Source of the DNA: Clostridia bacterium
GTDB taxonomy: Bacteria; Bacillota; Clostridia; TANB77; CAG-508
Assembly (NCBI GenBank): GCA_029258515.1
Contig: JARHYK010000002.1
Location: 167,216 to 231,215, forward strand
Reading direction: 5' to 3'
DNA length: 64,000 nt
Of this stretch, positions 2,801 to 44,467 are shown in pieces; the stretch's first letter is position 1; each line of letters begins with the position of its first letter. The position numbers and the translations under genes were made by a program. Below the pieces are notes generated by a model. That model was not told the DNA's origin and ran no database searches. It was given only the letters and a program-made list of their open reading frames with translations.

Positions 2801-4354
2801 ATGGAAAAAATAAAAATAAAGAAAACAAATGGTATTACTTTAATTGCATTAGTAATTACAATAATAGTTTTATTAATCTTAGCAGGTGTAACAATAGCAA
2901 GTTTAAGTGGAGATAATGGAATACTTCAAAGAGCAAGTGAAGCAAAGAAAAAAACTAACAAAGAAGATGCAGAAGAATCAATAAAATTACTATTAACAGA
3001 AGTTCAAATGGAGAAAAATTTAGGAACAAAACCATTAAAAGATTTGTTAGAAGAAAAATTTGGACAAAGTAATGTAAAGCCAAATGGAGATGGATTTAAA
3101 GTAATAAAAGATGGTTATGAAGCAACAATTGATGCTAATGGTAATTTAGTAGGAGAAGTAGTAAAAGTAGGAACAGGGGGAGAAATACCAATACCACCAA
3201 CAACAGGTAAAACAGATGGGAGTTGGGATGCAACAAAAGGTGTAAATTCACCTAAATTAAAAGATAATATGAAATTAGTAACATACAGCAATGGAAATTG
3301 GGTAGAAGATACAACTAATTTAGCTTATAAATATGTTGCAGGAACAGGAAATGAAGACAATATTTCAAGTGAATGGGCAAATGCTGTTTTAGATGGAAAT
3401 TATTATGTATGGATACCGAGGTATGCGTATAAAATAGATAATAGTGTAACATATACAAGTCAAGCAGGTACAAGTCATAAAATAGATGTTAAATTTGTTG
3501 ACAATAGTGTAAAAGGAACAACAAGTGATGGGTATATAGTACATCCCGCATTTACATTTGGAACAGAAGAGCTAAGTGGAATATGGGTAGGAAAATATGA
3601 AACAAGTAGAAGTGATGCAACAGAAACTCAAGAAGGAACAGCTATAACAGTAAAAATACAACCAAATGTTAGAAGTTATAGAAATATAACTGTATCAACA
3701 ATGTTTGAAGCAGCTAAAAGTTTAAGTAAGCCAAATGTAGATGCTCATATGATGAAAAATACAGAATGGGGAGCAGTAGCATATTTGGCACAAAGTCCAT
3801 ATGGAAGAAATGGAACAGAAGTAAGTGTGAATCAATGTAGTGATTATATAACAGGAGCAGGAAAGACTAAAGGAATAAATAAAATTTATGAAAGTACAAC
3901 TTATTCACAAGCAGACATAGAACCAGAACAAAAATATGATGGAGCTATAGGTAAAATGTCAAGTACAACAGGAAATGTATATGGAGTATATGATATGTCG
4001 GGTGGAGCATTGGAGTATGTAATGGGGGTATATGGAACAGGAAATCCATTAAAACCATCAATTGGCAGTTCTTCAGGATTTGATATTAATAAATTCCCAG
4101 AAAGTAAGCATTATGATGTATATGAAAATAAAACAAATGATTATGGAAATTATGAAGGTGGTAAAGATGGTGATGCAACTAAGGAAATTCAAAATTGGAA
4201 TAATGATTTTGCTTACTTTGTGAATTCTGACCATCCGTTTTTCTTACGAGGAGGTAGATATAATAATTCTGGCAATTCAGGTTTGCTTTGCTTTACCTGG
4301 GGTAATGGTAATGCTTACGGTGATCTCGGTTTTCGTCTTTGCCTTGTGGTATAG
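2801..4354 (+). CDS. type IV prepilin-like N-terminus fused to an FGE-sulfatase/C-type-lectin-fold domain protein; candidate DGR target
   Basis: Short basic leader ending in G (MEKIKIKKTNG), then a hydrophobic helix ITLIALVITIIVLLILAGV. FGE-sulfatase domain motifs TEWGAVAY, GVYDMSGGALEYV and RGG...GFRLC are present. The C-terminal 35 codons are A-depleted and Asn/Ser/Gly/Tyr-rich. Confidence 0.75.
   Translation: MEKIKIKKTNGITLIALVITIIVLLILAGVTIASLSGDNGILQRASEAKKKTNKEDAEESIKLLLTEVQMEKNLGTKPLKDLLEEKFGQSNVKPNGDGFKVIKDGYEATIDANGNLVGEVVKVGTGGEIPIPPTTGKTDGSWDATKGVNSPKLKDNMKLVTYSNGNWVEDTTNLAYKYVAGTGNEDNISSEWANAVLDGNYYVWIPRYAYKIDNSVTYTSQAGTSHKIDVKFVDNSVKGTTSDGYIVHPAFTFGTEELSGIWVGKYETSRSDATETQEGTAITVKIQPNVRSYRNITVSTMFEAAKSLSKPNVDAHMMKNTEWGAVAYLAQSPYGRNGTEVSVNQCSDYITGAGKTKGINKIYESTTYSQADIEPEQKYDGAIGKMSSTTGNVYGVYDMSGGALEYVMGVYGTGNPLKPSIGSSSGFDINKFPESKHYDVYENKTNDYGNYEGGKDGDATKEIQNWNNDFAYFVNSDHPFFLRGGRYNNSGNSGLLCFTWGNGNAYGDLGFRLCLVV
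2828..4010 (+). repeat. dispersed repeat copy A (paralogous to 30761..31900; about 95% identical over the first ~780 nt, patchy thereafter)
   Basis: By-eye nucleotide alignment of the two pilin/FGE genes. Identity begins exactly at the codons for NGITLIAL. Confidence 0.8.
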
Positions 4355-4995: not shown

Positions 4996-5021
4996 ATTTA
5001 TATTTTAAGGAGGAATTGTTT

Positions 5022-6404
5022 ATGTTAAAATCAATGGATCAAATAGTAAATTTATGTAAAAGCAGAGGATATATTTATCCAGGTTCAGAAATTTATGGAG
5101 GATTAGCTAATTCATGGGATTATGGACCACTAGGAGTTGAATTAAAAAATAATATAAAGAGAGCTTGGAGAAAAAAATTCATACAAGAAAAACAAAATGT
5201 AGTAGGATTAGATGCAGCAATATTAATGAATCCAGAAACATGGGTAGCATCAGGACATGTTGGTGGATTTTCAGATCCTTTAATAGATTGTAAAGAATGT
5301 AAAACAAGACACAGAGCAGATAAATTAATAGAAGAATGGGCACATGAACACGGAAAAGATATGGTAGCAGATGGAATGTCAGATGAAGAATTAATAAATT
5401 TTATTAATGAAAATAAAATAGCTTGTCCAAACTGTGGTAAAACTAATTTTACAGATGTAAGAAAATTTAATTTAATGTATAAAACATATCAAGGAGTGAC
5501 AGAAGATACAACATCAGAAATCTTTTTAAGACCAGAAACAGCACAAGGAATATTTGTAAATTATAAAAATGTAATGAGAACAACTAGAAAAAAATTACCA
5601 GTAGGAATAGGGCAAATAGGAAAAGCGTTTAGAAATGAAATAACACCAGGAAACTTTATTTTCAGAACACGTGAATTTGAACAAATGGAATTAGAATTTT
5701 TCTGTAAGCCAGGAACAGATTTAGAATGGTATGAATATTGGAAAGAATTTTGTAAGAATTGGTTATTAAATTTAGGAATGAAAGAAGAAAATATTAGATT
5801 AAGAGAACATACTCAAGAAGAATTAGTATTTTATAGTAAAGGAACAACAGATATAGAATATAAATTTCCATTTGGTTGGGGTGAGTTATGGGGAATAGCA
5901 GATAGAACAGACTATGACTTAAAACAACACATGGAACATTCAAAACAAGATTTGACATATCAAGATATAGAAAATAAAGAAAAATATATACCATATGTAA
6001 TAGAACCATCAGTAGGAGCAGATAGAGTATTGTTAGCGTTTTTATGTAATAGTTATGAAGAAGAAGAAATTGACAAAGGAGATACAAGAACAGTATTACA
6101 TCTTCATCCAGCATTAGCACCATTTAAAGCAGCAGTATTACCATTGTCTAAGAAATTATCAGAAAAAGCGAATGAAGTATATGAAAAATTATCAAAAGAC
6201 TTTATGTGTGATTATGATGAAGCTGGAAGTATAGGAAAAAGATATAGAAGAGAAGATGAAATAGGAACACCATATTCAATAACAGTTGATTTTGATACAT
6301 TAGAGGATGATACAGTAACTATAAGAGACCGTGATACTATGGAACAAGTAAGAGTTAAAATACATGAATTAAATGACTGGTTAAGTGAAAAAATCAAGTT
6401 TTAA
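5022..6404 (+). CDS. glyQS: glycine--tRNA ligase (alpha2 type)
   Basis: Strong class II GlyRS homology ([21 protein letters not shown]...). GGAGG RBS 9 nt upstream of the ATG at 5022. Confidence 0.9.
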
Positions 6405-7185: not shown

Positions 7186-8493
7186 TTATTTGTTTTTTCC
7201 TAATAGTCTAAACATATTTTTTTTGTATTCTTCTACACCAGGTTGATTAAATGGATTAACGCCTAAAATCATACCTGACATTGCACAAGCTTTTTCAAAG
7301 AAATATAAAAGTTCACCTAAATTTAATTCATCTAGTTTATTCATTTCTATAACTATATTTGGTACATTACCACTGACATGAGCTTCAATAGTACCTTGAA
7401 TTGCTTTTTTATTTACAAAGTCCATAGTTTTATTTGCTAGATAGTTTAAACCATCTAAATTATCATCATCTGGGTTGATAGTAATGTCACTGTTTGGACT
7501 TTTTATAGTAACAACAGTTTCAAAAATATCTCTTCTACCTTCTTGTATATATTGGCCCATAGAATGTAAGTCAGTTGTAAAATCTACACCAGCAGGGAAG
7601 ATACCTTTATTTTCTTTTCCTTCACTTTCTCCATAAAGTTGTTTCCACCATTCTGTTAGATAGTGCATTTTAGGTTCGTAATTAACTAAAATTTCAGTTG
7701 TTTTTTCTAATTTTGAATATAAAATATTACGGGCAACTGCATATTGATAACATTCGTTATATTTTAAATTAGGGTCGTCAAATCTATTTTCAGCGATTCT
7801 AGCTCCTTCCATTAATTTGTCAATATCAATGCCTGCTACAGCGATAGGAAGTAAACCAACAGCTGTTAAAACAGAATATCTACCCCCAATATTATCAGGA
7901 ACTATAAATTGTTCATATCCTTCATTTTGAGCTAAAGTTTTTAAAGCACCTTTTTCTTTATCAGTTGTTGCATATATTCTACTTCTAGCTTCATCAATTC
8001 CATATTTATTTTCTAATATTTCTCTAAATATTCTAAAAGCAATAGCAGGTTCTGTTGTTGTTCCGGATTTAGAAATTATATTTATTGAAAAATCTTTGTT
8101 TCCAATATATTCAATTAAATCATTTATATAGTTTGGGCTTAAGTTGTTTCCTACATATAGAATTTTAGGGTGTTTTCTTAATTTATTTGGCAACATGTTA
8201 TAAAAAGTGCTTGTTAAACTTTCTATAACTGCTCTAGCACCTAAATATGAACCGCCAATACCAATAACTACTAAAATATCAGATTCTTTTGATATTTTTT
8301 TTGCAGCCTTTTTGATTTTTTTAAATTCTTCTTTATCATAATTTGAAGGTAAGTGTAACCAACCTACAAAGTCAGCTAAGCTATCTGCTCTTTTATGTAA
8401 TTCAGTGTGTATTTTTTTAACATTTGATTTATACTCTTCAATTTCTTTTTGTGTAATTGGAGTATTTTTTAAGTTTATTTTGATATTTGACAT
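7186..8493 (-). CDS. pgi: glucose-6-phosphate isomerase
   Basis: PGI family homology throughout. The start was reset to MSNIKIN, which has a GGAGG RBS. The longer ORF-track start at 8553 has no RBS. Confidence 0.9.
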
Positions 8494-8610
8494 GTTTTTT
8501 CCTCCTCGTATATTATTATTTTTCTTATGATTTAAGATAATTTTATAATACATTAATTTGTTATATTTTTCAAGTAGTTTATAGTATTTTAATATTAAAA
8601 ATAAAAAGAA

Positions 8611-8650
8611 GATACGTACTATTGCAAATGAGCTATAGTACGTATCAACA
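8611..8650 (-). terminator. rho-independent terminator for the upstream cupin gene
   Basis: Perfect 12-bp inverted repeat GATACGTACTAT/ATAGTACGTATC with an 11-nt loop, followed by a T-run on the minus strand. Confidence 0.6.
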
Positions 8651-8653
8651 AAA

Positions 8654-9118
8654 CTAGAAATCTCTTTTACTTGAGATTTCTACACTCAAAATGTATAATT
8701 CTGAGTTGGAAGTATTTTCTATACAATGCGATTCTCCAGGTTTACAGATTGAATCAATTCCATTTGGGTAAAATAGAATTTCTGTAATATTTTTTGCTTG
8801 TCCACCTTTTTTACCATTTTTGTTTACATATTTAGTATGGGAATGTTCACCTATTAAACTATGTGGTTCAAGGCATAACCATGTAAATTTGTGCATGGTG
8901 TGCTTATAGTAAAAAGTTCCAAGCTTTTGTACTTTTACTTTTCCAAATCCAGTTATTGTTTTTAATTGCAATTCTTTCCATACTTTGGGGTTTGAGGTAT
9001 GTAAAATAGTGTATAACTCTTTCCATAAAGCATGATAAGGATCTTTTTTAGGAAAATTAAAAAGGTTTTGCCGAATTTTCTTTAATTTCCGTAAAGTTGT
9101 AATAGTAAAATCTTCCAT
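8654..9118 (-). CDS. cupin-fold hypothetical protein
   Basis: 154 aa with a GGAGG RBS. The His-rich motif HSLIGEHSH...H suggests a cupin metal site. Confidence 0.4.
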
Positions 9119-9231
9119 GTTTGTACCTCCTAAAAATTATTATAGTATACATAATAACACAATGAAGCGTATATTTCAAGGAAATCATAGAAAATTATAA
9201 TTATTTAATAAAATATCTAAGTACTTTTTAT

Positions 9232-10458
9232 TTATATTTTTATAATTTTATTAGTATAATCTAAATTTCCGAGACAATTATTATCATAGCCTAAAGTGTA
9301 TATATTAGTTGCTAAAATATCTTTATATAGCAAATCTTTTAAATAAGTATTAGTACACTTATCTTCGAATTTTTTAACAGAAGTAATAATAGGTAAATTA
9401 GGATTAGATTTAGAAATTTTGGAAAGTAAATTTTGACCATTAGAATTAAATCCTAAAACTCTAATATATGGAGAAATTTTTTTAGAAAATTCCATATTGT
9501 CTTTTGTGATATCTAGCAAAATATAAAGTAAAATTCTCTGAATTCTAGTTATAGTATATCTTTTGGATTTAATCATTTTTATTAATTCAGGAATTGTGCT
9601 ACATGTTAAAGAGGCTTTTTTTATTAAATTTTCTAAACCTTCATTTACATCTGGTAGATTAGCTATTTCAGCAAGAGACATATTTCGAAGTTTATATAAA
9701 ATTAGTTTATCAAATTTTGAAATATCAACTAAGCGATTGTCTTTTATATTTTCTTTTAAGATTGAATAGGAAGATTCAGGCATAACTTTAGAAAGAATAG
9801 CTAAATTGTTATTTTTTAAAGCGTATCTAATAGCACTTCCACTTGCAATATTTCCATGAATGCATTTATCACTATAATCTGAAGAACGTTTTATAGAATA
9901 TGGAATAATTGAGGAATGAAGTTTTTTTAAGGCTTTTATGTATTCTATTGCTAAAATATTATTTGGATTAGATAAAATATCTATATATTTTTTATCATTT
10001 CCTAAAAATGAAAGTAAAGCGGTTTCTCTAGCTTTAGGGTAAGATAAACCTTTATTTAATTCTATATTTAATATTTTTTTATACTTTTCTGGCTCATTGA
10101 CTAAAATTTCAGAGACTTTGTAAAAAAGGGGAATATTAGAATATTCAGCACCAAAAGATATAGTGTCAACGATATTTAAACTATCTAAGATTTTAATGCT
10201 ACCAAAGGCAAAGTTTTCTGCACTTGAAATTGAATAAATTAAAGGGAGTTCAATAACTAAGTCAATACCATTTAATAAGGCCATCTTAGTTCTACTCCAT
10301 TTATCTACTATGGCAGTTTCTCCTCGTTCAGTAAAATTGCCATTCATAACAGCAATTGTATATTTACTGTTAGTTATTTTTTTACTAAGTTCTAAGTGCT
10401 GTAGATGTCCATTATGAAAAGGATTATATTCTGCAACAATACCTAAAACTCTATCCAT
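9232..10458 (-). CDS. tmcAL: tRNA(Met) cytidine acetate ligase (YlbM/UPF0348 family nucleotidyltransferase)
   Basis: N-terminal motif GIVAEYNPFHNGH characteristic of the TmcAL/YlbM family. GGAGG RBS present. Confidence 0.75.
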   Translation of the reverse strand: MDRVLGIVAEYNPFHNGHLQHLELSKKITNSKYTIAVMNGNFTERGETAIVDKWSRTKMALLNGIDLVIELPLIYSISSAENFAFGSIKILDSLNIVDTISFGAEYSNIPLFYKVSEILVNEPEKYKKILNIELNKGLSYPKARETALLSFLGNDKKYIDILSNPNNILAIEYIKALKKLHSSIIPYSIKRSSDYSDKCIHGNIASGSAIRYALKNNNLAILSKVMPESSYSILKENIKDNRLVDISKFDKLILYKLRNMSLAEIANLPDVNEGLENLIKKASLTCSTIPELIKMIKSKRYTITRIQRILLYILLDITKDNMEFSKKISPYIRVLGFNSNGQNLLSKISKSNPNLPIITSVKKFEDKCTNTYLKDLLYKDILATNIYTLGYDNNCLGNLDYTNKIIKI

Positions 10459-10573
10459 AAAAATTACCTCCTAGATTAAATTTAAAATAAAATAAAAAAA
10501 CATTGTTTTATTCTATTTTTATGGTATAATTATATCACAAAAGAAAATAAAAAACAATAGAAAAGAGGAAAAT

Positions 10574-30733: not shown

Positions 30734-32233
30734 GTGAAAAAATCTAAAGAAAGAAACACAAATGGTATTACTTTAATTGCATTAGTAATTACAATAATAG
30801 TTTTATTAATCTTAGCAGGTGTAACAATAGCAAGTTTAAGTGGAGAAAATGGGATACTTCAAAAAGCAAGTGAAGCAAAGGAAAAAACTAATAAAGAAGA
30901 TGCAGAAGAATCAATAAAATTACTAGTAACAGAAGTTCAAATGGAGAAAAATCTAGGAACAAAACCATTAAAAGATTTGTTAGAAGAAAAATTTGGACAA
31001 AGTAATGTAAAGCCAAATGGAGATGGATTTAAAGTAATAAAAGATGGTTATGAAGCAACAATTGATGCTAATGGCAATTTAGTAGGAGAAGTGGAAAAAG
31101 TAGGAACAGGGGGAGAAATACCAACAACTGGTAAAACAGATGGAAGTTGGGATGAAACAAAAGGTGTAAATGTACCTAAACTAAAAGATAATATGAAATT
31201 AGTAATATATAGTAATGGAAATTGGGTAGAAGATACAACAAATTCAGCTTATAAATATGTTGCAGGAACAGGGAATGAAGATAATAATTCAAGTGAATGG
31301 GCAAATGCTGTTTTAGATGGAAATTATTATGTATGGATACCAAGGTATGCGTATAAAATAGATAATAGTGTAACATATACAAGTCAGGCAGGTACGAGTC
31401 ATAAAATAGATGTTAAATTTGTTGACACTAGTGTAAAAGGAACAACAAGTGATGGGTATATAGTACATCCCGCATTTACATTTGGAACAGAAGAGCTAAG
31501 TGGAATATGGGTAGGAAAATACGAAACGTCAGGTGATATTGCAAAACCAACAATAAAACCTGATCAAGTAGCATTAACAGATATTAATGTTGCAACGATG
31601 TTTGGAACAGCTAAAAAATTAAGTAAAATAAATATAGATGCTCATATGATGAAAAATACAGAATGGGGAGCAGTAGCATATTTGACACAAAGTTCATATG
31701 GGAGAAATGGAACAGAAGTAAGTGTGAATCAGTGTAGTAATTATATAACAGGTGCAGGGAGAGGAATTGGTAATCCAATAGATAATCCAATTTATAATGG
31801 AATATATTCAAATCCAGAACTTAATCAAAAATATAATGGAGCAATAGGACGATTATCAAGTACAACAGGAAATGTATATGGGGTATATGATATGTCTGGA
31901 GGAACAGTTGAATATGTGATGGGAGTATATGGGACAGATAAAAATAATATAAGTTTTAGGTATTCTGGTTTTGATATCAATTCTTTTCCAAAAGAAGAAA
32001 AATATTATGATTTGTATACTAAAACAAGTACAGATATAACTAATATTGGTGATAGTTTGTTTGAAACATCTGGTTGGAATAATGATAATAAATCTTTTTT
32101 TAATCTCGACTTTCCTTTTTCTAGACGTGGTGGTCGTTATAATTCTTCTAGTGATGCCGGTATTTTTTATCATAATCCTTACAATGGTGCCAATGATAGT
32201 TCGTACGGTTTTCGAGTGTGTCTTTCAGTATGA
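30734..32233 (+). CDS. type IV prepilin-like N-terminus fused to an FGE-sulfatase/C-type-lectin-fold domain protein (paralog of 2801..4354); candidate DGR target
   Basis: GTG start with an AAGGAGG RBS. Leader MKKSKERNTNG followed by ITLIALVITIIVLLILAGV. The FGE motifs are conserved. The divergent C-terminal 36 codons are A-depleted and Asn/Ser/Tyr/Asp/Gly-rich. Confidence 0.75.
   Translation: MKKSKERNTNGITLIALVITIIVLLILAGVTIASLSGENGILQKASEAKEKTNKEDAEESIKLLVTEVQMEKNLGTKPLKDLLEEKFGQSNVKPNGDGFKVIKDGYEATIDANGNLVGEVEKVGTGGEIPTTGKTDGSWDETKGVNVPKLKDNMKLVIYSNGNWVEDTTNSAYKYVAGTGNEDNNSSEWANAVLDGNYYVWIPRYAYKIDNSVTYTSQAGTSHKIDVKFVDTSVKGTTSDGYIVHPAFTFGTEELSGIWVGKYETSGDIAKPTIKPDQVALTDINVATMFGTAKKLSKINIDAHMMKNTEWGAVAYLTQSSYGRNGTEVSVNQCSNYITGAGRGIGNPIDNPIYNGIYSNPELNQKYNGAIGRLSSTTGNVYGVYDMSGGTVEYVMGVYGTDKNNISFRYSGFDINSFPKEEKYYDLYTKTSTDITNIGDSLFETSGWNNDNKSFFNLDFPFSRRGGRYNSSSDAGIFYHNPYNGANDSSYGFRVCLSV
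30761..31900 (+). repeat. dispersed repeat copy B (paralogous to 2828..4010)
   Basis: By-eye alignment with copy A. Contains a 6-codon indel (PIPPTT vs PTT) and scattered substitutions. Confidence 0.8.
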
Positions 32234-33902: not shown

Positions 33903-34286
33903 ATGAAGGGAAAAAGTGATATAGTGGAAGATATGAAAATTGAAAATATATTAAAAGAATTGTCAAAATCAAATTTTAGAAGTAAATTTCATTTAAAGGT
34001 AGAGGATAAAAAATATATTGAAAAAAAGGGAATAGATACAATAAGAAAACATGCATATGATTTGATAACTAAAAGATTAGCACCTAAAGATTTAAAAAAT
34101 GATGGTAGACAAACACCAATGAAAGGACATCCTGTTTTTATTGCACAACATGCAACAGCAACTTGTTGTAGAGGATGCTTATATCAATGGCATAAAATAC
34201 CACAAGGAATGGAATTAGATAAAAAACAAATAGATTATGTAGTAAATGTTATAATGGCATGGATAAACAAAGAATATAATAGTTAA
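33903..34286 (+). CDS. DUF4186 family protein
   Basis: Conserved [15 protein letters not shown] cysteine motif. Confidence 0.5.
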
Positions 34287-34309
34287 TTTATAGAAAGGAC
34301 AAGAAGAAA

Positions 34310-34873
34310 ATGAAATTAAGAGAAAGTATAAAAGAATATAATCCATATAATGAGCAGGAAGAAAAAGATAAAAAGTTAATGTTAAATTTTATAGATAAAT
34401 TTGATGATGTGTTAACAAGAAATAATAATTTAGGACATTTTACAGCGTCAGTTTGGGCAGTTAATAAAGAAAGAACAAAGGTATTGATGATATATCATAA
34501 TATATATAAATCATGGTCTTGGATAGGAGGACATGCTGATGGAGAAGAAGACTTATTAAGTGTTGCAATTAAAGAATTAAAAGAAGAAACAGGAATAAAA
34601 AATCCTAAGATTTTAGATGATAATATTTTTGCACTTGATGCTATTTGTGTAAATGGTCATATAAAAAATGGAGAATATGTGTCATCACATTTACATTTAG
34701 ATTTGGCATATCTTGTAGAAGTAAGTGAAAATGAAATTTTAAAGATAAAAGAAGATGAAAATAGTGGAGTTAAATGGATTAATATAGAAGATGTAGAAAA
34801 AGTTTCTAATGAAAAATGGATGGTAGAAAATGTATATAAAAAAATGATAGATAAATTAAAAAAATTATATTAA
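34310..34873 (+). CDS. NUDIX hydrolase
   Basis: Nudix box [24 protein letters not shown]. Confidence 0.8.
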
Positions 34874-34887
34874 GGAGTAGTGATAAA

Positions 34888-36450
34888 ATGAAAAAAGTTT
34901 ATTTTAATGGTAAAATATTGACGTTAGAATATAAGCTATATGAAGAAAGTGTAATGATAGAAGATGGAAAAATTACATATGTAGGAGATTTTGAAAATAT
35001 AAAAAATCAAGATGCTGAATTTATTGACTTACAAGGAAAAACATTAATGCCATCATTCATAGATCCACATAGTCATATATCTCCTTTTGCTTCAACATTA
35101 TTAATAGCAGATTTATCAGGAGTAAAATCATATGAAGAAATTGTTGAAAAACTAGAAGAATATAAGAAGAATAATAATTTTGATGATGGAAAATGGTTAA
35201 TTGGTTTTGGGTATGACCATAATGACTTAAAAGAAAAAGAACATCCGACAAAAGAAATCTTAGATAAGGTAAGTACAACTATACCAATTATGCTTACTCA
35301 TAAATCAGGACATATGGGGGTTGTTAATTCAAAAGGAATAGATGTCTTAGATTTAAAAAATAGACTTAAAAATATAGAAGGTGGTAGTTATGGGAAAACT
35401 TCTACTGGAGAACTTACAGGATATTTGGAAGAAGGAGCTTTTATTGGAGTATTAGAGAAAGTAAATTCTTTTTCAATAGTAGATTTAGAAAATGCTTTAA
35501 AGAAGGCAGAAGATATTTATTTGAGTTATGGTATAACAACAGTACAAGATGGTTTAACTAAGAAAAATGATTTCTATTTATTAAAAAAATTAGCAGAAGA
35601 AAATAAACTAAGATTAGACATAGTAAGTTATATTGATATAAAAGATAATAGCGATATTTTAAAAGAAAATAAAAAATATTTAAAATATAGTAATAGGCTT
35701 AGAATAGGTGGATATAAATTAATATTAGATGGAAGTCCACAAGGAAAAACAGCTTGGCTTTCAAAACCATATGAGAATGAAGAAAGTTATTTAGGCTATC
35801 CAGCATATAAGGATGAAGAAGTAGAAAATTATGTTAAACAAGCAGTTGGTGAAAAAATGCAGTTATTAACTCATTGTAATGGAGATGCTGCAAGTGAACA
35901 ATTAATAAAAAGTTATGAAAAATTGGACCAAAAAGATTTTTATAGGCCAGTTATGATACATGCACAAACAGTAAGAAAAGATCAGATTGAAAGAATGAAA
36001 AGAATATCAATGATACCATCATTTTTTATAGCACATATATATCATTGGGGAGATATTCATATTAAAAATTTAGGAAAAAGAGCTCAAGATATAAGTCCTG
36101 TAAAATGGGCAATAGAAGAAAATATGAATTATACTTTTCATCAAGATACACCAGTATTATTACCAAATATGTGGGAAACTATATGGTGTGCTTGTAAAAG
36201 ACAAACTAAAAATGGAGTGATTTTAGGAAATCAACAAATAAGTGTATTAGATGCTATAAAAGGAGTAACTAAGATGGCTGCATATCAATATTTTGAAGAA
36301 AATCAAAAAGGAACAATAGCAGTAGGTAAAAAAGCTGATTTTATAATAATAAAAGAAAATCCATTGGAAATTGATATTGATAAAATAAAAGATATAGAGA
36401 TAATGGAAACTATAAAAGAAGGAAAAGTATTATATAAAAAAGAAAGATAA
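34888..36450 (+). CDS. amidohydrolase family (amidohydrolase_3) metal-dependent hydrolase
   Basis: The DPHSH metal-binding motif near the N-terminus. 520 aa. Good RBS. Confidence 0.75.
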   Translation: MKKVYFNGKILTLEYKLYEESVMIEDGKITYVGDFENIKNQDAEFIDLQGKTLMPSFIDPHSHISPFASTLLIADLSGVKSYEEIVEKLEEYKKNNNFDDGKWLIGFGYDHNDLKEKEHPTKEILDKVSTTIPIMLTHKSGHMGVVNSKGIDVLDLKNRLKNIEGGSYGKTSTGELTGYLEEGAFIGVLEKVNSFSIVDLENALKKAEDIYLSYGITTVQDGLTKKNDFYLLKKLAEENKLRLDIVSYIDIKDNSDILKENKKYLKYSNRLRIGGYKLILDGSPQGKTAWLSKPYENEESYLGYPAYKDEEVENYVKQAVGEKMQLLTHCNGDAASEQLIKSYEKLDQKDFYRPVMIHAQTVRKDQIERMKRISMIPSFFIAHIYHWGDIHIKNLGKRAQDISPVKWAIEENMNYTFHQDTPVLLPNMWETIWCACKRQTKNGVILGNQQISVLDAIKGVTKMAAYQYFEENQKGTIAVGKKADFIIIKENPLEIDIDKIKDIEIMETIKEGKVLYKKER

Positions 36451-36619
36451 ACGAAGTTTTTATTTGCTATATTTGTGATATTTATATTATTTTTCTTAAT
36501 GTGCGATACGAAAAATAAAGTAAATAAGCTATAATTATATAAGTATATATTATGCCGGAGGGGATCTTCTGGCATAATATTATTTGATATTTTATAATGG
36601 AAGAAGAGGTGTAAAAAAG

Positions 36620-36880
36620 ATGGGAAATTTAGCATATTTTGGATTAGGAATATTATTAGGACTAGGAATTTCAATATATTTTATTGTAAGCAGAGAAGAA
36701 AGAATTGAAAAGAAAATAGCAATGAATCAAAAAATGTATTCGACAGAAAAATTGGATAAGACAATGGAAATAGTTGTTGAAAAAATTAGTAAGGATATAA
36801 AAAGATTAAGAAGAGAATTAACAGAGGAAGAAAAAAATCAAATTATTATAGAGAGCTATAAAGAAAAATTTTTGATATAA
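36620..36880 (+). CDS. small membrane protein, YtxH-like
   Basis: N-terminal glycine-zipper TM helix (FGLGILLGLGISIYF) followed by a charged coiled coil. Confidence 0.4.
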   Translation: MGNLAYFGLGILLGLGISIYFIVSREERIEKKIAMNQKMYSTEKLDKTMEIVVEKISKDIKRLRRELTEEEKNQIIIESYKEKFLI

Positions 36881-37231
36881 TTATTTAATTGTATTAAAAA
36901 TTTTAGAAATAAAAGTAAAGTGATATGTACTGATAATTAATGATTAGATAAAAGAATGCAAAAAAATAGACTTATCTATTGATAAGTCTATGGTGTTATT
37001 GAAGTAGTTATCTACAACTTTTTTTGAATCTCATAACGATTGGTATAAAAAAATCAATTATTCATTAATTGTCTTTATTTTAACATAAAATTTATAAACT
37101 TTTAAGTTTTTTAGATGATGGTTAGATTATTGATAAAAACATAAATTTATGATATCATATATTTGTGCAAATAGTTATTTATATAATTGTTTAAGTTTCA
37201 ATAATTAAATAAATGGAGATGATGCATTATT

Positions 37232-37765
37232 ATGAGAAAGAAAACTATAAGTAAAACTTATATGAGAGGTGTTACAGATTGGGAATTTATTTCAATAAAA
37301 AGAAAAGAGGAGAATTTTCATATTTGCATAAAAAAGATAAATGAAGTTGATAAACCATTCATTCTAGATAGATATGGAAAAGAAACTGCATTTATTGATA
37401 ATGGATACTATATTGTTGAATTTACACCATTAAATGAGCTTTATAACGCAAGAGCGTTTCTTGATAAAAATTTAGATATTATAGGATATTACTTTGACAT
37501 AAGTCTTGAAAATGGTGTAGAAGATTGTATACCGTATTATGATGATTTGTATTTAGATGTTATTTATGACGGAAAACCTAAATTTGTTATAGAAATTGAA
37601 GATAAAGATGAGTTAGAGGAGGCACTAAATAGTGGAAAGATAACACAAGAACAATATGATTTGGCAAATAAAAAATGTTCGGATTTAGTCGAAGAAATTG
37701 TCAGTAATAGAAATATATTTATTAATATGAATATAAAAGATTTAATTCATAAGTATTTCAAATAA
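37232..37765 (+). CDS. DUF402 family protein (Ntdp/FomD-like nucleoside di/triphosphatase fold)
   Basis: Acidic motif cluster YYFDISLENGVEDCIPYYDDLYLDVIYDG...EIEDKDELEEAL, typical of DUF402. Good RBS. Confidence 0.55.
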   Translation: MRKKTISKTYMRGVTDWEFISIKRKEENFHICIKKINEVDKPFILDRYGKETAFIDNGYYIVEFTPLNELYNARAFLDKNLDIIGYYFDISLENGVEDCIPYYDDLYLDVIYDGKPKFVIEIEDKDELEEALNSGKITQEQYDLANKKCSDLVEEIVSNRNIFINMNIKDLIHKYFK

Positions 37766-37909
37766 AATAATACTTATATAATTAAAACTTGAAACTTTAA
37801 AAAGTTGCATAATACACAAGATTATGTTATAGTAGTAGATAATCCAGGCTTAAACCTGATTTATGTAAGCAAAAGTAAAATGTTTGTAATTAAAAAGGAG
37901 AGTTTTACT

Positions 37910-38803
37910 ATGGAAAACAACAGTAACAGTCAGGATAACTACAATGCATTAGTAAATCGGAGTGGTATAACAAAACACATTAGAGAAATTATGGACTTAA
38001 GAGAACTGTATGTTCTTTTATCCTATGAATGTAATGGGAATTGTGAATACTGCATAGAAAGAAATGCTCATCAAAAATCAATGATAACGGATGAAAATTT
38101 TAATAAAGCATTAGATTTTGCAAGAGAAAATGACTTGCATATAATTTTTTTGCATGGTGGAGAACCAACTATTCATCCTAATGTTGTTGAGTATGCAAAG
38201 CAAGCGAAAGAAGCAGGGTTTTTGGTAAAAATGTTTACAAATGGAATTGCTATTGAGACCATTAAAAAACTGGATGGTATACTTGATGAGATTATCTTTT
38301 CATACAGAGGAGACTATTCTTTGCATGATCAAAGCAAATGGAAATCTTCTTTGTCATTGCAAATTCTTGTAGCAGAGTCTGACTTTCCTACGCTAGAATC
38401 ATTGAGAAAGTTCATTCTCGAAAAAAAGAAAACAGGTATGAAAATAAGACTGCATACATTGAACCCAGTTAATCAGTATTCATATGATAATCAGTATGTT
38501 TCGTATCTAGAGGACATGTTCATGCAAACACCAGACAATCAGATTTATTGTGTTAACAATAAGGCGATGCTGTCGTTTGAAGGAGTTGGAATAAGATTAA
38601 CTAATAAATCATTAAATCCTATGCATCTTAAATATAGTATGAGTCCAGATGGTGAAATCAGAAAAAATTTTAAAAGATATTTTGAAGAAATTGTCAAAAA
38701 CGATGCAATGGAAGAACTATTACAAAGGTCTAACGATAAACTTATGAGAATAAGGACAGATACTACGCCTATTTCTTTGGAAGAAGTAAAGAATTTTTTT
38801 TAG
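37910..38803 (+). CDS. radical SAM protein (no SPASM or B12 domain)
   Basis: CX3CX2C motif CNGNCEYC near the N-terminus and GGEPT SAM-binding motif. The start was reset to the ATG with an AAAAAGGAGAG RBS. The ORF-track TTG start at 37805 lacks an RBS. Confidence 0.7.
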   Translation: MENNSNSQDNYNALVNRSGITKHIREIMDLRELYVLLSYECNGNCEYCIERNAHQKSMITDENFNKALDFARENDLHIIFLHGGEPTIHPNVVEYAKQAKEAGFLVKMFTNGIAIETIKKLDGILDEIIFSYRGDYSLHDQSKWKSSLSLQILVAESDFPTLESLRKFILEKKKTGMKIRLHTLNPVNQYSYDNQYVSYLEDMFMQTPDNQIYCVNNKAMLSFEGVGIRLTNKSLNPMHLKYSMSPDGEIRKNFKRYFEEIVKNDAMEELLQRSNDKLMRIRTDTTPISLEEVKNFF

Positions 38804-39160
38804 CAATTTACTTAAAAAGATTAAAGTATTATTCTAATCTTAGCTAGTGGCAAATTTTAAATGCTGCTAGCTTTTTTAATAAAAATAATTGTACAATTAA
38901 ATTACAATTTTAAATATTATAAAAATAAATAAAAATCTATTGACTATACTATTAAGGCTTTAATTATAGAAGTTCGAGCAGATTAGTTGTTGAAGAGGTT
39001 GATACTATTAAATAATTATACTGCTACTTTATTAAAAATTATCTTTTCTCATAGGATGATTTTAATGTATTGTTTTTAGGCAAAAAAAAAAAATCAAGCA
39101 GATTTTTTTCTGGTTGATTTTAGTATAATTCTATTTGATTAGTTCGAATAGAAATGTTTA

Positions 39161-39249
39161 TGGTGCAGATGGCCGGAATCGAACCGGCACGAGGTTTAAC
39201 CCTCGCAGGATTTTAAGTCCTGTGCGTCTACCTGTTCCGCCACATCTGC
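39161..39249 (-). tRNA. tRNA-Leu (anticodon TAA), long variable arm
   Basis: The reverse complement folds as a class II tRNA. Acceptor stem GCAGATG/CATCTGC, anticodon loop CTTAAAA, T-loop TTCGATT and CCA end. Confidence 0.85.
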
Positions 39250-39459
39250 ATATATTAAAAACAGGTTTGCCTTAACGACAATTAGTATTATAATATTTAA
39301 AATAAGATTTGTCAATGATATTTTGAAAAAAAGTTTAAAAAATTTAAAAAAATTTATTTCAATAATAAAAATTGTAGAATTGATGCAAAATATAAGAAAA
39401 ATAATTGATTTTATGTTTGATTTATAGTAAAATGTAAACATTGAAAGGGGGCATGTATA

Positions 39460-41183: not shown

Positions 41184-42110
41184 ATGGGTAAGTATCAAAA
41201 TTTTTATGCCATAGAAACTTTGAATGATGTTGAAAAAAGAAATAAAAAAAATAAAATATTAATAATATTTTTGTTGCTTGTTATTTTTAGTATTTTGTTA
41301 TTTTTAATAGTAAATGTAAATAGCAATATTAAAAAGTTAAAGCAAGCTAAGGAATATGAAAAACAAGTATTAGAGTTTAAGGAAAAATATGAAAAAGAAG
41401 AATTAAGAAAAAAACAAGAAGAAGAACAAAAAAAACAAGCTAGATTACCTAGAATAACAGAACAGGGAAAAGAAAATTTCAGAACGATTTTTCATTCTGA
41501 TAAAAAACGAGCATTTTTAACATTTGATGATGGACCATCTACTGTAACACATAAAATATTAGATACATTGGATGAAAAAGGAGTAAAAGCAACATTTTTC
41601 ATATTGGGAGTAAATGCTGAGAAAAACAAAGAATTAGTAAATCAAATGTATGAAAAAGGGCACTATATTGCAAATCATGGTTATTCACATGTGTATTCAT
41701 CAATATATTCAAGCCCACAAGCAGTTTTAGATGAGTATAATAAAACAAATGATATAATAAAAGAAGCTATTAAACAACCAGAATTTAATTCATATTTATT
41801 TAGATTTCCAGGTGGATTTTATGGTGGAAAATATGCAAATATTAAAAAAGAAGCAAATGAAATGTTAAAGCAAAATGATATTTCTAATATTGATTGGAAT
41901 TGTTTAACTGGTGATTCTGAAACAAGTAGTCCTACGCCAGAATATGTTATAAAAAGATTAAAAGAAACGTCTAAAGGAAAAAATAGTTTAGTAGTATTGA
42001 TGCATGATGCACAAGCTAAAAAAGTTACAGCAGAGATGCTACCACAAATTATAGATTATCTAAGTAGTGAAGGATATGAATTTAAGACATTTTATGATAT
42101 ATTTATATGA
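41184..42110 (+). CDS. polysaccharide deacetylase (NodB-homology) with an N-terminal TM anchor and coiled coil
   Basis: NodB motifs FLTFDDGP and ANHGYSH. Confidence 0.75.
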   Translation: MGKYQNFYAIETLNDVEKRNKKNKILIIFLLLVIFSILLFLIVNVNSNIKKLKQAKEYEKQVLEFKEKYEKEELRKKQEEEQKKQARLPRITEQGKENFRTIFHSDKKRAFLTFDDGPSTVTHKILDTLDEKGVKATFFILGVNAEKNKELVNQMYEKGHYIANHGYSHVYSSIYSSPQAVLDEYNKTNDIIKEAIKQPEFNSYLFRFPGGFYGGKYANIKKEANEMLKQNDISNIDWNCLTGDSETSSPTPEYVIKRLKETSKGKNSLVVLMHDAQAKKVTAEMLPQIIDYLSSEGYEFKTFYDIFI

Positions 42111-44467
42111 GTTATAAAATAAAATGTTTTGATTTTTGTAATTTATTTTCAATAAAGAAAGGAGCAATAAAATTGCCTAGAAAGAAGAAGACAAATTTTG
42201 AACCAGAGATAGAAGAAAACTTAAAATACATAGGATTAGATTTAGAAAAGTTACCTCAAAATATTATTGATTTTGAACCATTAAAATTTAGGCCTACAAA
42301 AACATATGACGAGAAAAAATATATACAATATAGATTTGTATCTATTCAGGATATTCAAATATTAATTTCACCAACAAATAGGTTAGAAGAATTAGAAGAA
42401 AAATATAAAAAAGCAAGACCGTTAGTAGATTATATGGATAACAAAAAAGAAGATAATTTGTTGAGATTTACAGTGTTTTTGAATATGATCAAACAAATGG
42501 ATATTGCTGAAATAGAAAAAGTAGAAGAAGAACAAAAAAAACTTGCTCAAAAACTTCCTTTTAATGTTAAATATGAAGGTAATTATTTATGGCAAATTTA
42601 TTATTCAGAGATAAGTGATAAATATTTTATGCTTGTTCCTATGGAAGAAACAAATTATTCAGCGTTTTTCTATTTATTAAAGAAGAAAATTGAAAATAAT
42701 AAAAATGATAAGATATTTGTACCTGTTTGTAATATTGGATATTCAAGAGAATTTTTTACAAAGACAGAATATAAAGATATAGAAGATTATTTATGGTTAT
42801 TTACTAAAAATTGGACATCTATTTATGAGGTGTATGATGAAAATAATAAACTTTCAGTTAATATAGTTGGAGAAACTGCAATTTATAATAATATAAAAAG
42901 TAAATATAAAATAAATATAAATAATCAAAAAGAAGCAAATCATTTTTATAAACTTTTAAAGGCATTATTTATTTTGCAAACAGAATTACCAAATTATTAT
43001 AAGTTTGATACAAATGTAGATGAGAAGGGTAATTTGCAATTTTATTTTAGAGATACACAAATTGAATATTCTAAAATGGCATCATTTATTAAAGAAGAAT
43101 TTTCTCAAGGAGAGATTTTAGAAATAGACATCTTAAAGAAAATAGAAAATGCTGATAAGAGATTAGAAGAATTAAAGCAAATAGCCTCTATGCAAGAAAT
43201 TGAATATAGAGATAAAGAAAAGCAAATATCAACTTTTTTAGAGTGTAAGAAAACATTTTTTGGGAAAGTTAAGTATTATTTTAAAATTAGTAAAAAAAAT
43301 AAAAAGAAGAAAAATCAAGAAGAGTTTGAAGAAAAAACAGTACAAGAGGATAGTTGTGAATTTTATAATGAAGAGAATGTACCTAAAGCTTTGAATTCAA
43401 AAAATCACACAATAGAAGAGCTAATAGAAAAATATAAAAATATTGATAATCAAGAGAATTTGTTAAAAAACATGGTTATGGATATAAATGCAATTAAATT
43501 AAAAAATAAAAATATGGCTAAAAAGATTGAAAATGCAACACTTTTTATAGAAGAAATTGATAATCATAAAAGAAGTATTTTTGAATTTTGGAAATATAGT
43601 AATAAAGATGCTATTAGTGTATTACCAGAAGGAGAAGAAGAAGAAATAGGAGTTGTTAAGAAAAAAATCGAAAAAGCTTTTGATTTTGAAGAAGATTTTG
43701 AAAAGTTTGGAATAAAATTAGATAATTTGCAAAGAGAAAAATTATCAATAGATGAAACAGATAGTATATATATTGCAACAACTAATATGTTAGATCTTTT
43801 GAATAAAATTCTTCTAAATGAAGTTGGACCTAAAGATGTTGAAAATGAATTAAAAAATTTAAAAAAAGAGTTGAAAGAAAAACAAGTGATTGAAACAGAT
43901 GAAGAATTTGATATCTTTGGAAGTTTAATTGAAGATAGTAGGAAGATAAAGAAAATAGGAAATAAGATACATAGAGAAATATCAAAAGACAAGTTTGATA
44001 TTCTTGAAATTACAAAAATGACTAGACAAATAGGGTTTAAGCTATCTTTGGAACAAGTTATTAAAAATATTAAAAATTCATTGGATAAGGTAAAATCTCC
44101 AGATGATTTAACTATCTATAAAGCAATTGTAGATGATAAGTTAGATGAAAATAAGATTAATGTTTTTGATATTAATTCTGAAAATGAAATGAAAAAAGCG
44201 TGCAAAAAAGAAGGAAATATGATTAATTTATATAAGATTAATTTAAAACGAGGTGAAAATATTTTAGGTTTTACAAATATAATTTATTATGATAATCAAA
44301 ATGATACTTTGCCTGCTGGAATGGATTTATCTACAAATGTTATAGTAGATATTTCAAAAATTGATTTGAATATTAAAAAGAAGAAAACTTTCCAAATTGC
44401 ATGTTTAGAAGATGAAAAAGATGAATTTTCTGATGTGATAGTTAAAAAAGTAACTGTTTATGAATAA
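42107..44467 (+). CDS. large hypothetical protein (786 aa, Lys/Glu-rich, coiled-coil-like), translationally coupled to the deacetylase
   Basis: ATGA start/stop overlap with the upstream gene. No signal peptide. No recognisable domain. Confidence 0.5.
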   Translation: MSYKIKCFDFCNLFSIKKGAIKLPRKKKTNFEPEIEENLKYIGLDLEKLPQNIIDFEPLKFRPTKTYDEKKYIQYRFVSIQDIQILISPTNRLEELEEKYKKARPLVDYMDNKKEDNLLRFTVFLNMIKQMDIAEIEKVEEEQKKLAQKLPFNVKYEGNYLWQIYYSEISDKYFMLVPMEETNYSAFFYLLKKKIENNKNDKIFVPVCNIGYSREFFTKTEYKDIEDYLWLFTKNWTSIYEVYDENNKLSVNIVGETAIYNNIKSKYKININNQKEANHFYKLLKALFILQTELPNYYKFDTNVDEKGNLQFYFRDTQIEYSKMASFIKEEFSQGEILEIDILKKIENADKRLEELKQIASMQEIEYRDKEKQISTFLECKKTFFGKVKYYFKISKKNKKKKNQEEFEEKTVQEDSCEFYNEENVPKALNSKNHTIEELIEKYKNIDNQENLLKNMVMDINAIKLKNKNMAKKIENATLFIEEIDNHKRSIFEFWKYSNKDAISVLPEGEEEEIGVVKKKIEKAFDFEEDFEKFGIKLDNLQREKLSIDETDSIYIATTNMLDLLNKILLNEVGPKDVENELKNLKKELKEKQVIETDEEFDIFGSLIEDSRKIKKIGNKIHREISKDKFDILEITKMTRQIGFKLSLEQVIKNIKNSLDKVKSPDDLTIYKAIVDDKLDENKINVFDINSENEMKKACKKEGNMINLYKINLKRGENILGFTNIIYYDNQNDTLPAGMDLSTNVIVDISKIDLNIKKKKTFQIACLEDEKDEFSDVIVKKVTVYE

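Follow-up and report, generated by a model that had tools for sequence, protein, structure and literature searches.

Gene organization of the cassette

The stretch of contig JARHYK010000002.1 (assembly GCA_029258515.1, class Clostridia) analyzed here in its full length of 64,000 nucleotides, and referred to as the window, is chromosomal DNA of low GC content (~25%) that carries the usual housekeeping genes, including those for MetRS, FtsH, PGI, other aminoacyl-tRNA synthetases and tmRNA. Within it, a core cassette of two genes, about 1.6 kb in size, resides on the forward strand. The first gene (37232-37765) encodes a DUF402 protein of 177 amino acids that matches Pfam family PF04167 above the cutoff (38.9 vs. 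23.9 bits), and the second (37910-38803) a radical S-adenosylmethionine (SAM) protein of 297 amino acids that exceeds the cutoff of the Radical_SAM family PF04055 (44.9 vs. 29.5 bits) and is thereby a member of this superfamily. In an original prediction, made by reading the bare nucleotide sequence, a DUF402 gene had been described that is followed after about 140 nucleotides by a gene for a radical SAM protein of approximately 297 residues with a CNGNCEYC motif and without SPASM or B12 domains. Open reading frames and Pfam matches bear this description out, and the spacer between the two genes (37766-37909, forward strand) measures 144 nucleotides.

The DUF402 and radical SAM genes appear to form one transcription unit. 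A terminator scan of the intergenic spacer was negative, its folding z-score of -0.86 is not significant, and it contains a strong Shine-Dalgarno sequence, AAGGAGAG, at 37895-37902, 7 nucleotides 5' of the ATG at 37910. In the mechanical listing of open reading frames, the radical SAM gene begins at a TTG at 37805. We place its start at ATG 37910, resulting in 297 amino acids, because both the N-termini of homologs and the ribosome-binding site support this choice. Upstream of the DUF402 gene, a consensus scan revealed a promoter-like site on the forward strand (37130-37158, TTGATA-17-TATCAT with a TG extension, 10/12 matches) that constitutes a candidate promoter for the two-gene unit, though sites of this kind are no commoner here than in shuffled sequence. 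The preceding gene is closed by a strong hairpin (36966-36991). Downstream of the cassette, a hairpin with a stem of 11 bp (38842-38872) and a subsequent U-run resembles an intrinsic terminator (38842-38877, forward strand; -14.7 kcal/mol, z = -3.1 by RNA folding), and transcription of the unit probably stops there. The possibility of a riboswitch or of a structured leader in the spacer or the flanks was considered and discarded, given that Rfam matches were to tRNA only and no significant fold was detected.

The AT-rich flanking spacers of roughly 350 nucleotides noted earlier proved to be 351 (36881-37231) and 357 nucleotides (38804-39160) long, with GC fractions around 0.19-0.25. The gene for tRNA-Leu(taa), likewise correctly anticipated, is the 3' neighbor of the cassette and lies on the opposite strand (39161-39249, minus). 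GC content within the radical SAM gene (37950-38550) amounts to 0.30-0.33 and is above that of the DUF402 gene and the flanks (0.19-0.28).

Conservation and co-inheritance of the gene pair

A scan of GTDB with one genome per species yielded 26 loci encoding the radical SAM protein, and mapping with tblastn and profile hidden Markov models located a DUF402 gene directly next to it in 24 of them. The same holds true for 41 of the 42 metagenome contigs with enough flank to judge, a number that includes many repeats of the same species. Conservation of the two genes as neighbors had been proposed as a check on a functional module, and the pair withstood it. Furthermore, the pairwise identity matrices of the radical SAM and DUF402 proteins from 24 loci correlate with r = 0.95, a value reached in 0 of 2000 Mantel permutations, which shows that the two proteins are co-inherited.

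Three architectures were distinguished. In architecture A, the radical SAM gene precedes the DUF402 gene and a PHP gene (rSAM>DUF402>PHP); in architecture B, DUF402 and a NUDIX gene (DUF402<NUDIX) are divergent from the radical SAM gene, often with a convergent HAD-like gene thereafter; and in architecture C, the DUF402 gene, in some cases preceded by a HAD-like gene, is located upstream of the radical SAM gene ((HAD-like>)DUF402>rSAM). Genes outside the module vary by lineage and have housekeeping functions, e.g., FtsY, SpoIVA, GlmU, a copper ATPase, sigma factors and aminoacyl-tRNA synthetases. The window pair groups with clade A (rSAM>DUF402), to whose proteins it is 68-69% (radical SAM) and 54-63% (DUF402) identical, yet its gene order is the opposite one, and therefore adjacency has outlived a rearrangement.

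Two species-level loci deviate. In one (L031), the radical SAM gene is located between rpoD and rplU without an adjacent DUF402 gene. The other (L042) is a 38%-identical outlier from a high-GC metagenome-assembled genome (MAG) labeled Rickettsiales that also lacks an adjacent DUF402 gene. In this case (7974-10468), the radical SAM gene is followed by an open reading frame for 215 amino acids and then by a second radical SAM gene, for 341 amino acids with a cysteine-rich C-terminus. The context may thus differ.

With the exception of L042, all loci (25/26) stem from low-GC uncultured gut Clostridia/Bacillota MAGs, e.g., Clostridium sp. CAG:571 and CAG:343. The radical SAM family recurs in many human-gut metagenomes, and an exhaustive profile search against 1.84 billion representatives retrieved only 18 at E ≤ 1e-30, such that the family is a rare one. 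This core family is surrounded by a looser shell of radical SAM relatives of 230-330 amino acids that likewise fall outside all curated families. In public sources, family members are named only "radical SAM domain protein," and our full-text searches of the literature found no paper on this pairing or this radical SAM family. The core family was not found in IMG/VR or phage genomes, and a phage origin of the cassette was dismissed on this basis; only distant shell relatives occur in viral sets, and these are uninformative. They are encoded on two viral contigs (L051:6001-6711; L052:5998-6692) near genes for ATP-grasp R2K, YqeY and C39 peptidase proteins. Further shell relatives are located among hypothetical genes on ~0.9-Mb Vibrio plasmids (L130:5007-5741; L131:4956-5690).

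The radical SAM protein does not belong to a curated family

The cluster motif reads C41-N-G-N-C45-E-Y-C48 and predicts a single [4Fe-4S] site at C41/C45/C48. These three cysteines as well as G83-G84-E85, part of the motif LHGGEP at positions 81-86, are invariant across 38 homologs, the alignment of which contains 36 invariant columns. The only other cysteine of the protein, C214, is not conserved, the C-terminus is not cysteine-rich, and the Pfam scan gives neither a SPASM nor a B12 domain. Many of the invariant positions (T183, N185, P186, Y192, Q195, Y199, K218, H239 and K241) are found in the C-terminal half, which is without counterpart elsewhere and features the family-specific motifs TLNPVNQ (183-189) and NKSLNPxHxKYS (232-243). 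According to the AF2 model (pLDDT 91.7), the protein consists of a partial beta/alpha barrel followed by a C-terminal domain of a beta-sheet and helices.

The radical SAM protein belongs to no curated family. It reaches the cutoff of no NCBIfam model, and alignments to these models span residues ~25-135 only. The highest-scoring model is that for W-cofactor maturases (58 bits, cutoff 380), followed by the viperin model NF038283 (44.9 bits, cutoff 180, residues 39-132 only), the NrdG2 model TIGR02495 (40.5 bits, cutoff 131), MoaA models (34-38 bits, cutoffs 231-325; 34.1 vs. 284 for TIGR02666), the QueE model TIGR03963 (32.4 bits, cutoff 260) and SPASM maturase models (25-35 bits, cutoffs 340-425). 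Assignment to the MoaA family is additionally contradicted by the lack of the C-terminal cysteine triad for a second [4Fe-4S] cluster, and the protein is not a QueE, a SPASM/twitch maturase or a B12-dependent radical SAM enzyme either. A comparison with exactly such families (pVip, QueE, NrdG/PflA and peptide maturases) had been recommended in the original prediction; the protein stays below every NCBIfam cutoff and is not classified as an activase. Among solved structures, its nearest relatives by sequence and profile comparison are AbmM (2e-10), BlsE (1e-9) and PqqE, followed by viperins and MoaA (near 1e-4), with alignments confined to the N-terminal part throughout. AbmM, BlsE, viperin and MoaA act on nucleosides or nucleotides.

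A housekeeping activase akin to NrdG or PflA, or a gene that neighbors DUF402 by chance and without any functional tie, would be reconcilable with the small size of the protein, its single cluster, the N-terminal CX3CX2C motif and the appearance of PFL-AE among its local fold matches. We nevertheless hold this explanation to be hardly credible, as the NrdG2 score is less than the cutoff by a wide margin (40.5 vs. 131 bits), a large conserved C-terminal domain is present that activases lack, and no Gly_radical, NRDD or PFL gene occurs in the large open reading frames of the window or among the module neighbors, such that no glycyl-radical enzyme is found in the window or beside the radical SAM gene at any sampled locus. 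Chance adjacency is at odds with a pairing kept across three rearrangements. The two outcomes that would have spoken against a module of a radical SAM enzyme and a nucleotide hydrolase, i.e., confident classification as an activase with its cognate partner elsewhere and loss of the neighborhood in relatives, both failed to appear, and the module is supported as a functional one.

The DUF402 protein is a divergent member of its fold family

The AF2 model of the DUF402 protein (pLDDT 92.6) has nine significant fold matches in the PDB, all of which are DUF402 proteins. Foldseek returned RNase W/FAU-1, Ntdp/Sa1684 (the best whole-chain match with TM-scores of 0.65/0.66), SC4828, FomD and 2p12, with identities of 10-22% in the structural alignments. 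The family profile reaches RNase W domains weakly (E = 0.005), while Ntdp and FomD (10-17% structural identity) were not reached at E ≤ 1 with either the single sequence or the family profile. Because of these profile results, we regard the window protein as representative of a divergent DUF402 subfamily. Its earlier placement in the family of Ntdp and FomD was apt as a fold assignment, but sequence searches connect it to neither enzyme.

In the profile alignment, residues D89, D105, D109 and D124 fall on N404, D420, D424 and D437 of FAU-1, positions that have been described as metal ligands (PMC11602121). All four are invariant in the family, and for this reason we consider it very probable that the DUF402 protein is active as a metal-dependent phosphohydrolase. 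Among the characterized stand-alone DUF402 enzymes, Ntdp and SC4828 hydrolyze nucleoside tri- and diphosphates (NTP/NDP), and FomD a CMP-conjugate (PMC11602121). Ntdp, SC4828 and the RNase W domain share the fold and equivalent acidic metal-ligand positions with the window protein. The latter comprises the DUF402 domain only with its 177 residues, lacks the N-terminal domains of RNase W and is therefore not a member of that family.

One DUF402 paralog, 53% identical to the window protein, is encoded within a glycan-type gene cluster (L046:1-6426) along with an unrelated radical SAM protein, a guanylate-kinase-like protein, a HAD protein, a polysaccharide pyruvyl transferase, an FrhB-like protein, a methyltransferase and a GT2 protein. 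The radical SAM fragment from this cluster was evaluated as a possible relative of the window radical SAM protein and set aside, since the two have no similarity.

Accessory partners in other lineages

The recurrent extra partners of the cassette are all phosphoesterases; in addition, some lineages have a fusion of DUF402 with a GNAT domain. In the cassette-linked NUDIX protein the Nudix box is complete, and MutT/NUDT15 are the closest matches. The HAD-like partner (161-172 amino acids) exhibits DxDxT (DMDGT) and DDD (IDDD) motifs and weak affinities to NT5C and PNKP, and the PHP partner is nearest to the models for RNase RNM and 3',5'-bisphosphate phosphatase, albeit below cutoff. The DUF402 extension, N-terminal and of ~190 amino acids, is a GNAT domain in two lineages of the DUF402>rSAM type (L033:806-1906 and L035:195-1304), and a similar extension without Pfam GNAT match is present in two further cases (L030:793-1758 and L034:6922-7884).

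The HAD-like protein was considered as a dedicated component of the cassette and rejected in this role, since abundant family members occur elsewhere, near nrdDG, ogt and tag. Such members without a radical SAM gene are encoded in a region that is conserved and lies a few kb downstream of nrdD-nrdG (5001-5495 in each of L194-L199), where mgsA/rarA, His_Phos_1 and 2-phosphosulfolactate-phosphatase genes are neighbors and, in L194-L196, ogt and tag are situated just downstream. In a lineage resembling Clostridium sp. CAG:343, the HAD-like gene adjacent to the radical SAM gene is split into two open reading frames by a frame change (L010:1927-2412, L025:8872-9357, L161-L170). The split recurs in many independent metagenome samples, which is why we interpret it as a fixed pseudogene or a recoding site.

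Proposed function in nucleotide modification

On balance we favor, with about as much confidence as doubt, a function whereby the radical SAM enzyme transforms a nucleotide while DUF402 and its helpers take the product to the monophosphate or nucleoside, be it for maturation or for protection of the producer. This model is the best supported one because phosphohydrolases are the partners, relatives of the radical SAM protein act on nucleosides or nucleotides, and the two core proteins have acidic pI values (5.95 and 4.86). The nucleotide substrate, the order of the steps, the chemistry and the biological role are put forward here as proposals. The radical SAM enzyme, via its single [4Fe-4S]/SAM site, would abstract a hydrogen atom from the nucleotide and thereby generate a modified nucleotide, the likeliest target being the sugar moiety, either in an NTP or NDP or in a compound linked to NDP. 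The reaction could be a dehydration, a rearrangement, an epimerization or other single-cluster chemistry, and the sequence does not permit inference of the specific one. As a two-metal phosphohydrolase, DUF402 would then cut the phosphoanhydride of the product and release the monophosphate. Lineages other than that of the window may extend dephosphorylation by means of a MutT-type NUDIX protein, a small HAD phosphatase or a PHP phosphoesterase, and in some of them the GNAT domain may acetylate the product. Hydrolysis would serve to mature the product to an exportable nucleoside-type metabolite or, alternatively or additionally, keep a toxic analog triphosphate from the producer's own polymerases.

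In its overall logic, such a cassette resembles known systems of a radical SAM enzyme and a nucleotide hydrolase, while both components are new, i.e., an orphan radical SAM family and, where those systems have an HD enzyme or NTPase, a divergent DUF402 protein. OxsB and OxsA from Bacillus megaterium, which take part in the formation of oxetanocin A, likewise combine a radical SAM enzyme with a phosphate-stripping partner in just two genes. OxsB acts on dAMP, dADP or dATP and requires the presence of OxsA, which strips the product of one, two or three phosphates (PMC13331322). Unlike the window protein, which is devoid of a B12 domain, OxsB is cobalamin-dependent and consists of four domains; OxsA is an HD-domain enzyme and not a DUF402 protein, and specific homology to the window pair was not detectable. 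In the ThmA-C system for 4'-thiothymidine from Photorhabdus, a radical SAM enzyme is combined with a nucleoside triphosphatase that alone confers self-resistance, and the genes surrounding the cluster differ among species (PMC12691670). The Thm cluster and the cassette described here both behave as portable cassettes, a likeness drawn from the published description. Differences consist in the nucleoside kinase ThmB, which is absent from the window cassette, and in the hosts, which are Gammaproteobacteria in the case of Thm.

Several observations weigh against a nucleotide-directed function. Homology of the radical SAM protein to nucleotide-acting enzymes is confined to the SAM-binding N-terminal ~100-120 residues, and Foldseek searches with its model against PDB and BFVD gave generic radical SAM matches only (TM ~0.5). 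The window itself contains just the two core genes, with no HAD-like, PHP or orthologous NUDIX gene in its 64 kb. Linkage is asymmetric, as many close relatives of DUF402 (52-53% identity) occur without an adjacent radical SAM gene, either alone or in the glycan-type cluster, and most members of the HAD-like family reside outside the cassette; because of this asymmetry, the hydrolases are not dedicated by family. Co-diversification of the pair could in part be due to shared species phylogeny, i.e., vertical descent. Consistent linkage to an exporter, kinase or regulator is lacking at the module loci, and no kinase family recurs among the 86 neighbor proteins inspected (two per module side). 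Finally, by E-value the nearest relative of the DUF402 partner is the RNase W domain and not Ntdp or FomD.

The last point leads to an RNA-directed system, where the radical SAM enzyme would modify or repair tRNA or rRNA and DUF402 and the other hydrolases would process RNA ends. RNase W/FAU-1 domains come out nearest to the partner by E-value in sequence as well as structure searches, and the DUF402 domain of RNase W is a proven RNase (PMC11602121). The RNase RNM model is nearest to the PHP partner, the HAD-like partner weakly matches the phosphatase domain of PNKP, and NUDIX weakly matches the model for the RNA pyrophosphohydrolase YtkD. All of these matches, including that to RNase W, are far below the family cutoffs, the partner has neither the S1 nor the 5'-sensor domain that RNase W carries, and its best whole-chain TM-score is obtained with the nucleotide phosphatase Ntdp (0.65/0.66). 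In addition, the core proteins are acidic and have no recognizable RNA-binding domain in the Pfam scan, and the rarity and patchy distribution of the radical SAM family do not fit a core role in RNA maturation. We therefore view action on RNA as distinctly unlikely.

A further alternative, unlikely as well though marginally less so than an RNA substrate, is a pathway of the Fom1/Fom3/FomD type in which the nucleotide serves as a handle. The radical SAM enzyme would then modify the non-nucleotide part, e.g., a sugar or phosphonate, of a molecule linked to NMP or NDP; DUF402, together with NUDIX, would remove the nucleotide and the HAD enzyme the last phosphate. In fosfomycin biosynthesis in Streptomyces, the CMP-conjugate is first processed by the radical SAM enzyme Fom3, whereupon the DUF402 enzyme FomD indeed removes CMP (PMC9088020; PMC11602121), and no other characterized pathway is known with a DUF402 enzyme directly after a radical SAM enzyme (PMC9088020). 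NUDIX enzymes by definition cleave NDP-X compounds, a DUF402 paralog is located in the glycan-type cluster mentioned above, and a distant relative of the radical SAM protein (P0199) is a fusion with a GlmU-like nucleotidyltransferase domain. On the other hand, this fusion protein belongs to the shell relatives and not to the core family, no nucleotidyltransferase is conserved in the cassette, and no other biosynthetic genes recur. The fosfomycin pathway needs the cytidylyltransferase Fom1 and further enzymes, none of which is linked to the window cassette, Fom3 is a B12-dependent methyltransferase unlike the window protein, and FomD has no detectable sequence similarity to the window DUF402. 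An NTP-transferase encoded beside the radical SAM gene in two cases (L006/L024) was examined as a pathway clue and discounted: it is a genuine GlmU (577 vs. 450 bits cutoff), and its adjacency is therefore probably coincidental.

A viperin-like or nucleotide-modifying activity had been envisaged in the original prediction. This stays a working analogy and no more. Viperin and pVip are single-cluster radical SAM enzymes comparable in size to the window protein and likewise built of a partial barrel plus a C-terminal extension; they act on NTPs and rank among its nearest curated and structural relatives. Membership in the viperin family did not stand, the C-terminal domain differs, a defense island was not found, and hydrolases instead of kinases are the partners. 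We likewise consider anti-phage defense of the pVip type, with a chain-terminating nucleotide produced on infection and DUF402 limiting self-toxicity, to be highly improbable. The PADLOC profiles for pVip do match the radical SAM protein (E = 3e-14, 50-51 bits), in one case along residues 37-200. Its second-best match in NCBIfam is the viperin model, and viperin structures are among its fold matches. That model, however, yields 44.9 bits against a cutoff of 180, the neighbors are housekeeping genes with no consistent defense families among the 86 neighbor proteins, and a constitutively linked NTP/NDP hydrolase would destroy the chain terminator. Viperins partner with nucleotide kinases (10.1101/2023.09.13.557418), not with hydrolases. 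That viral contigs and phage genomes do not contain the core family says little about a defense role in the host.

Nucleotide-acting radical SAM enzymes have yielded antiviral and antibiotic molecules (ddhCTP, oxetanocin, 4'-thionucleosides) as well as new chemistry. Following the model of nucleotide modification one step further, it is conceivable, if rather doubtful, that common, though uncultured, Clostridia of the human gut use this radical SAM family to produce a novel modified nucleotide or nucleoside with the role of an antimetabolite or signal, for which DUF402 provides maturation and built-in self-protection at once. If true, nucleotide-directed radical SAM chemistry would gain a new type of reaction, and a new class of nucleoside analogs would be known from the microbiome. 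For the radical SAM family, the genomic context hints at the substrate class with unusual clarity, and its size of two genes makes the cassette directly amenable to heterologous expression combined with metabolomics. A positive outcome would for the first time assign a physiological role to a large DUF402 subfamily of the Firmicutes.

Other features of the window

Upstream of the cassette, the original prediction had named an amidohydrolase/YtxH block. The amidohydrolase gene (34888-36450, Amidohydro_3 in the Pfam scan) is present, while YtxH was not recovered: the protein encoded at 36584-36880 has only a sub-threshold match to DUF3810. The genes for DUF4186, NUDIX and Amidohydro_3 proteins (33903-36450) are tightly packed with gaps of 23 and 14 nucleotides and resemble a separate operon. 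The NUDIX protein of this group (34310-34873) was assessed as a member of the cassette and rejected, as only the Nudix box is common to it and the cassette-linked NUDIX proteins.

On the other side, a perfect promoter consensus (TTGACA-17-TATAAT) is located on the minus strand at 39287-39315, just upstream of the tRNA-Leu(taa) gene. Three large open reading frames of the window have no Pfam match at E ≤ 1e-5, namely 42107-44467 (786 amino acids), 2801-4354 (517 amino acids) and 30734-32233 (499 amino acids), the first of which overlaps the stop codon of a polysaccharide deacetylase gene (41184-42110).

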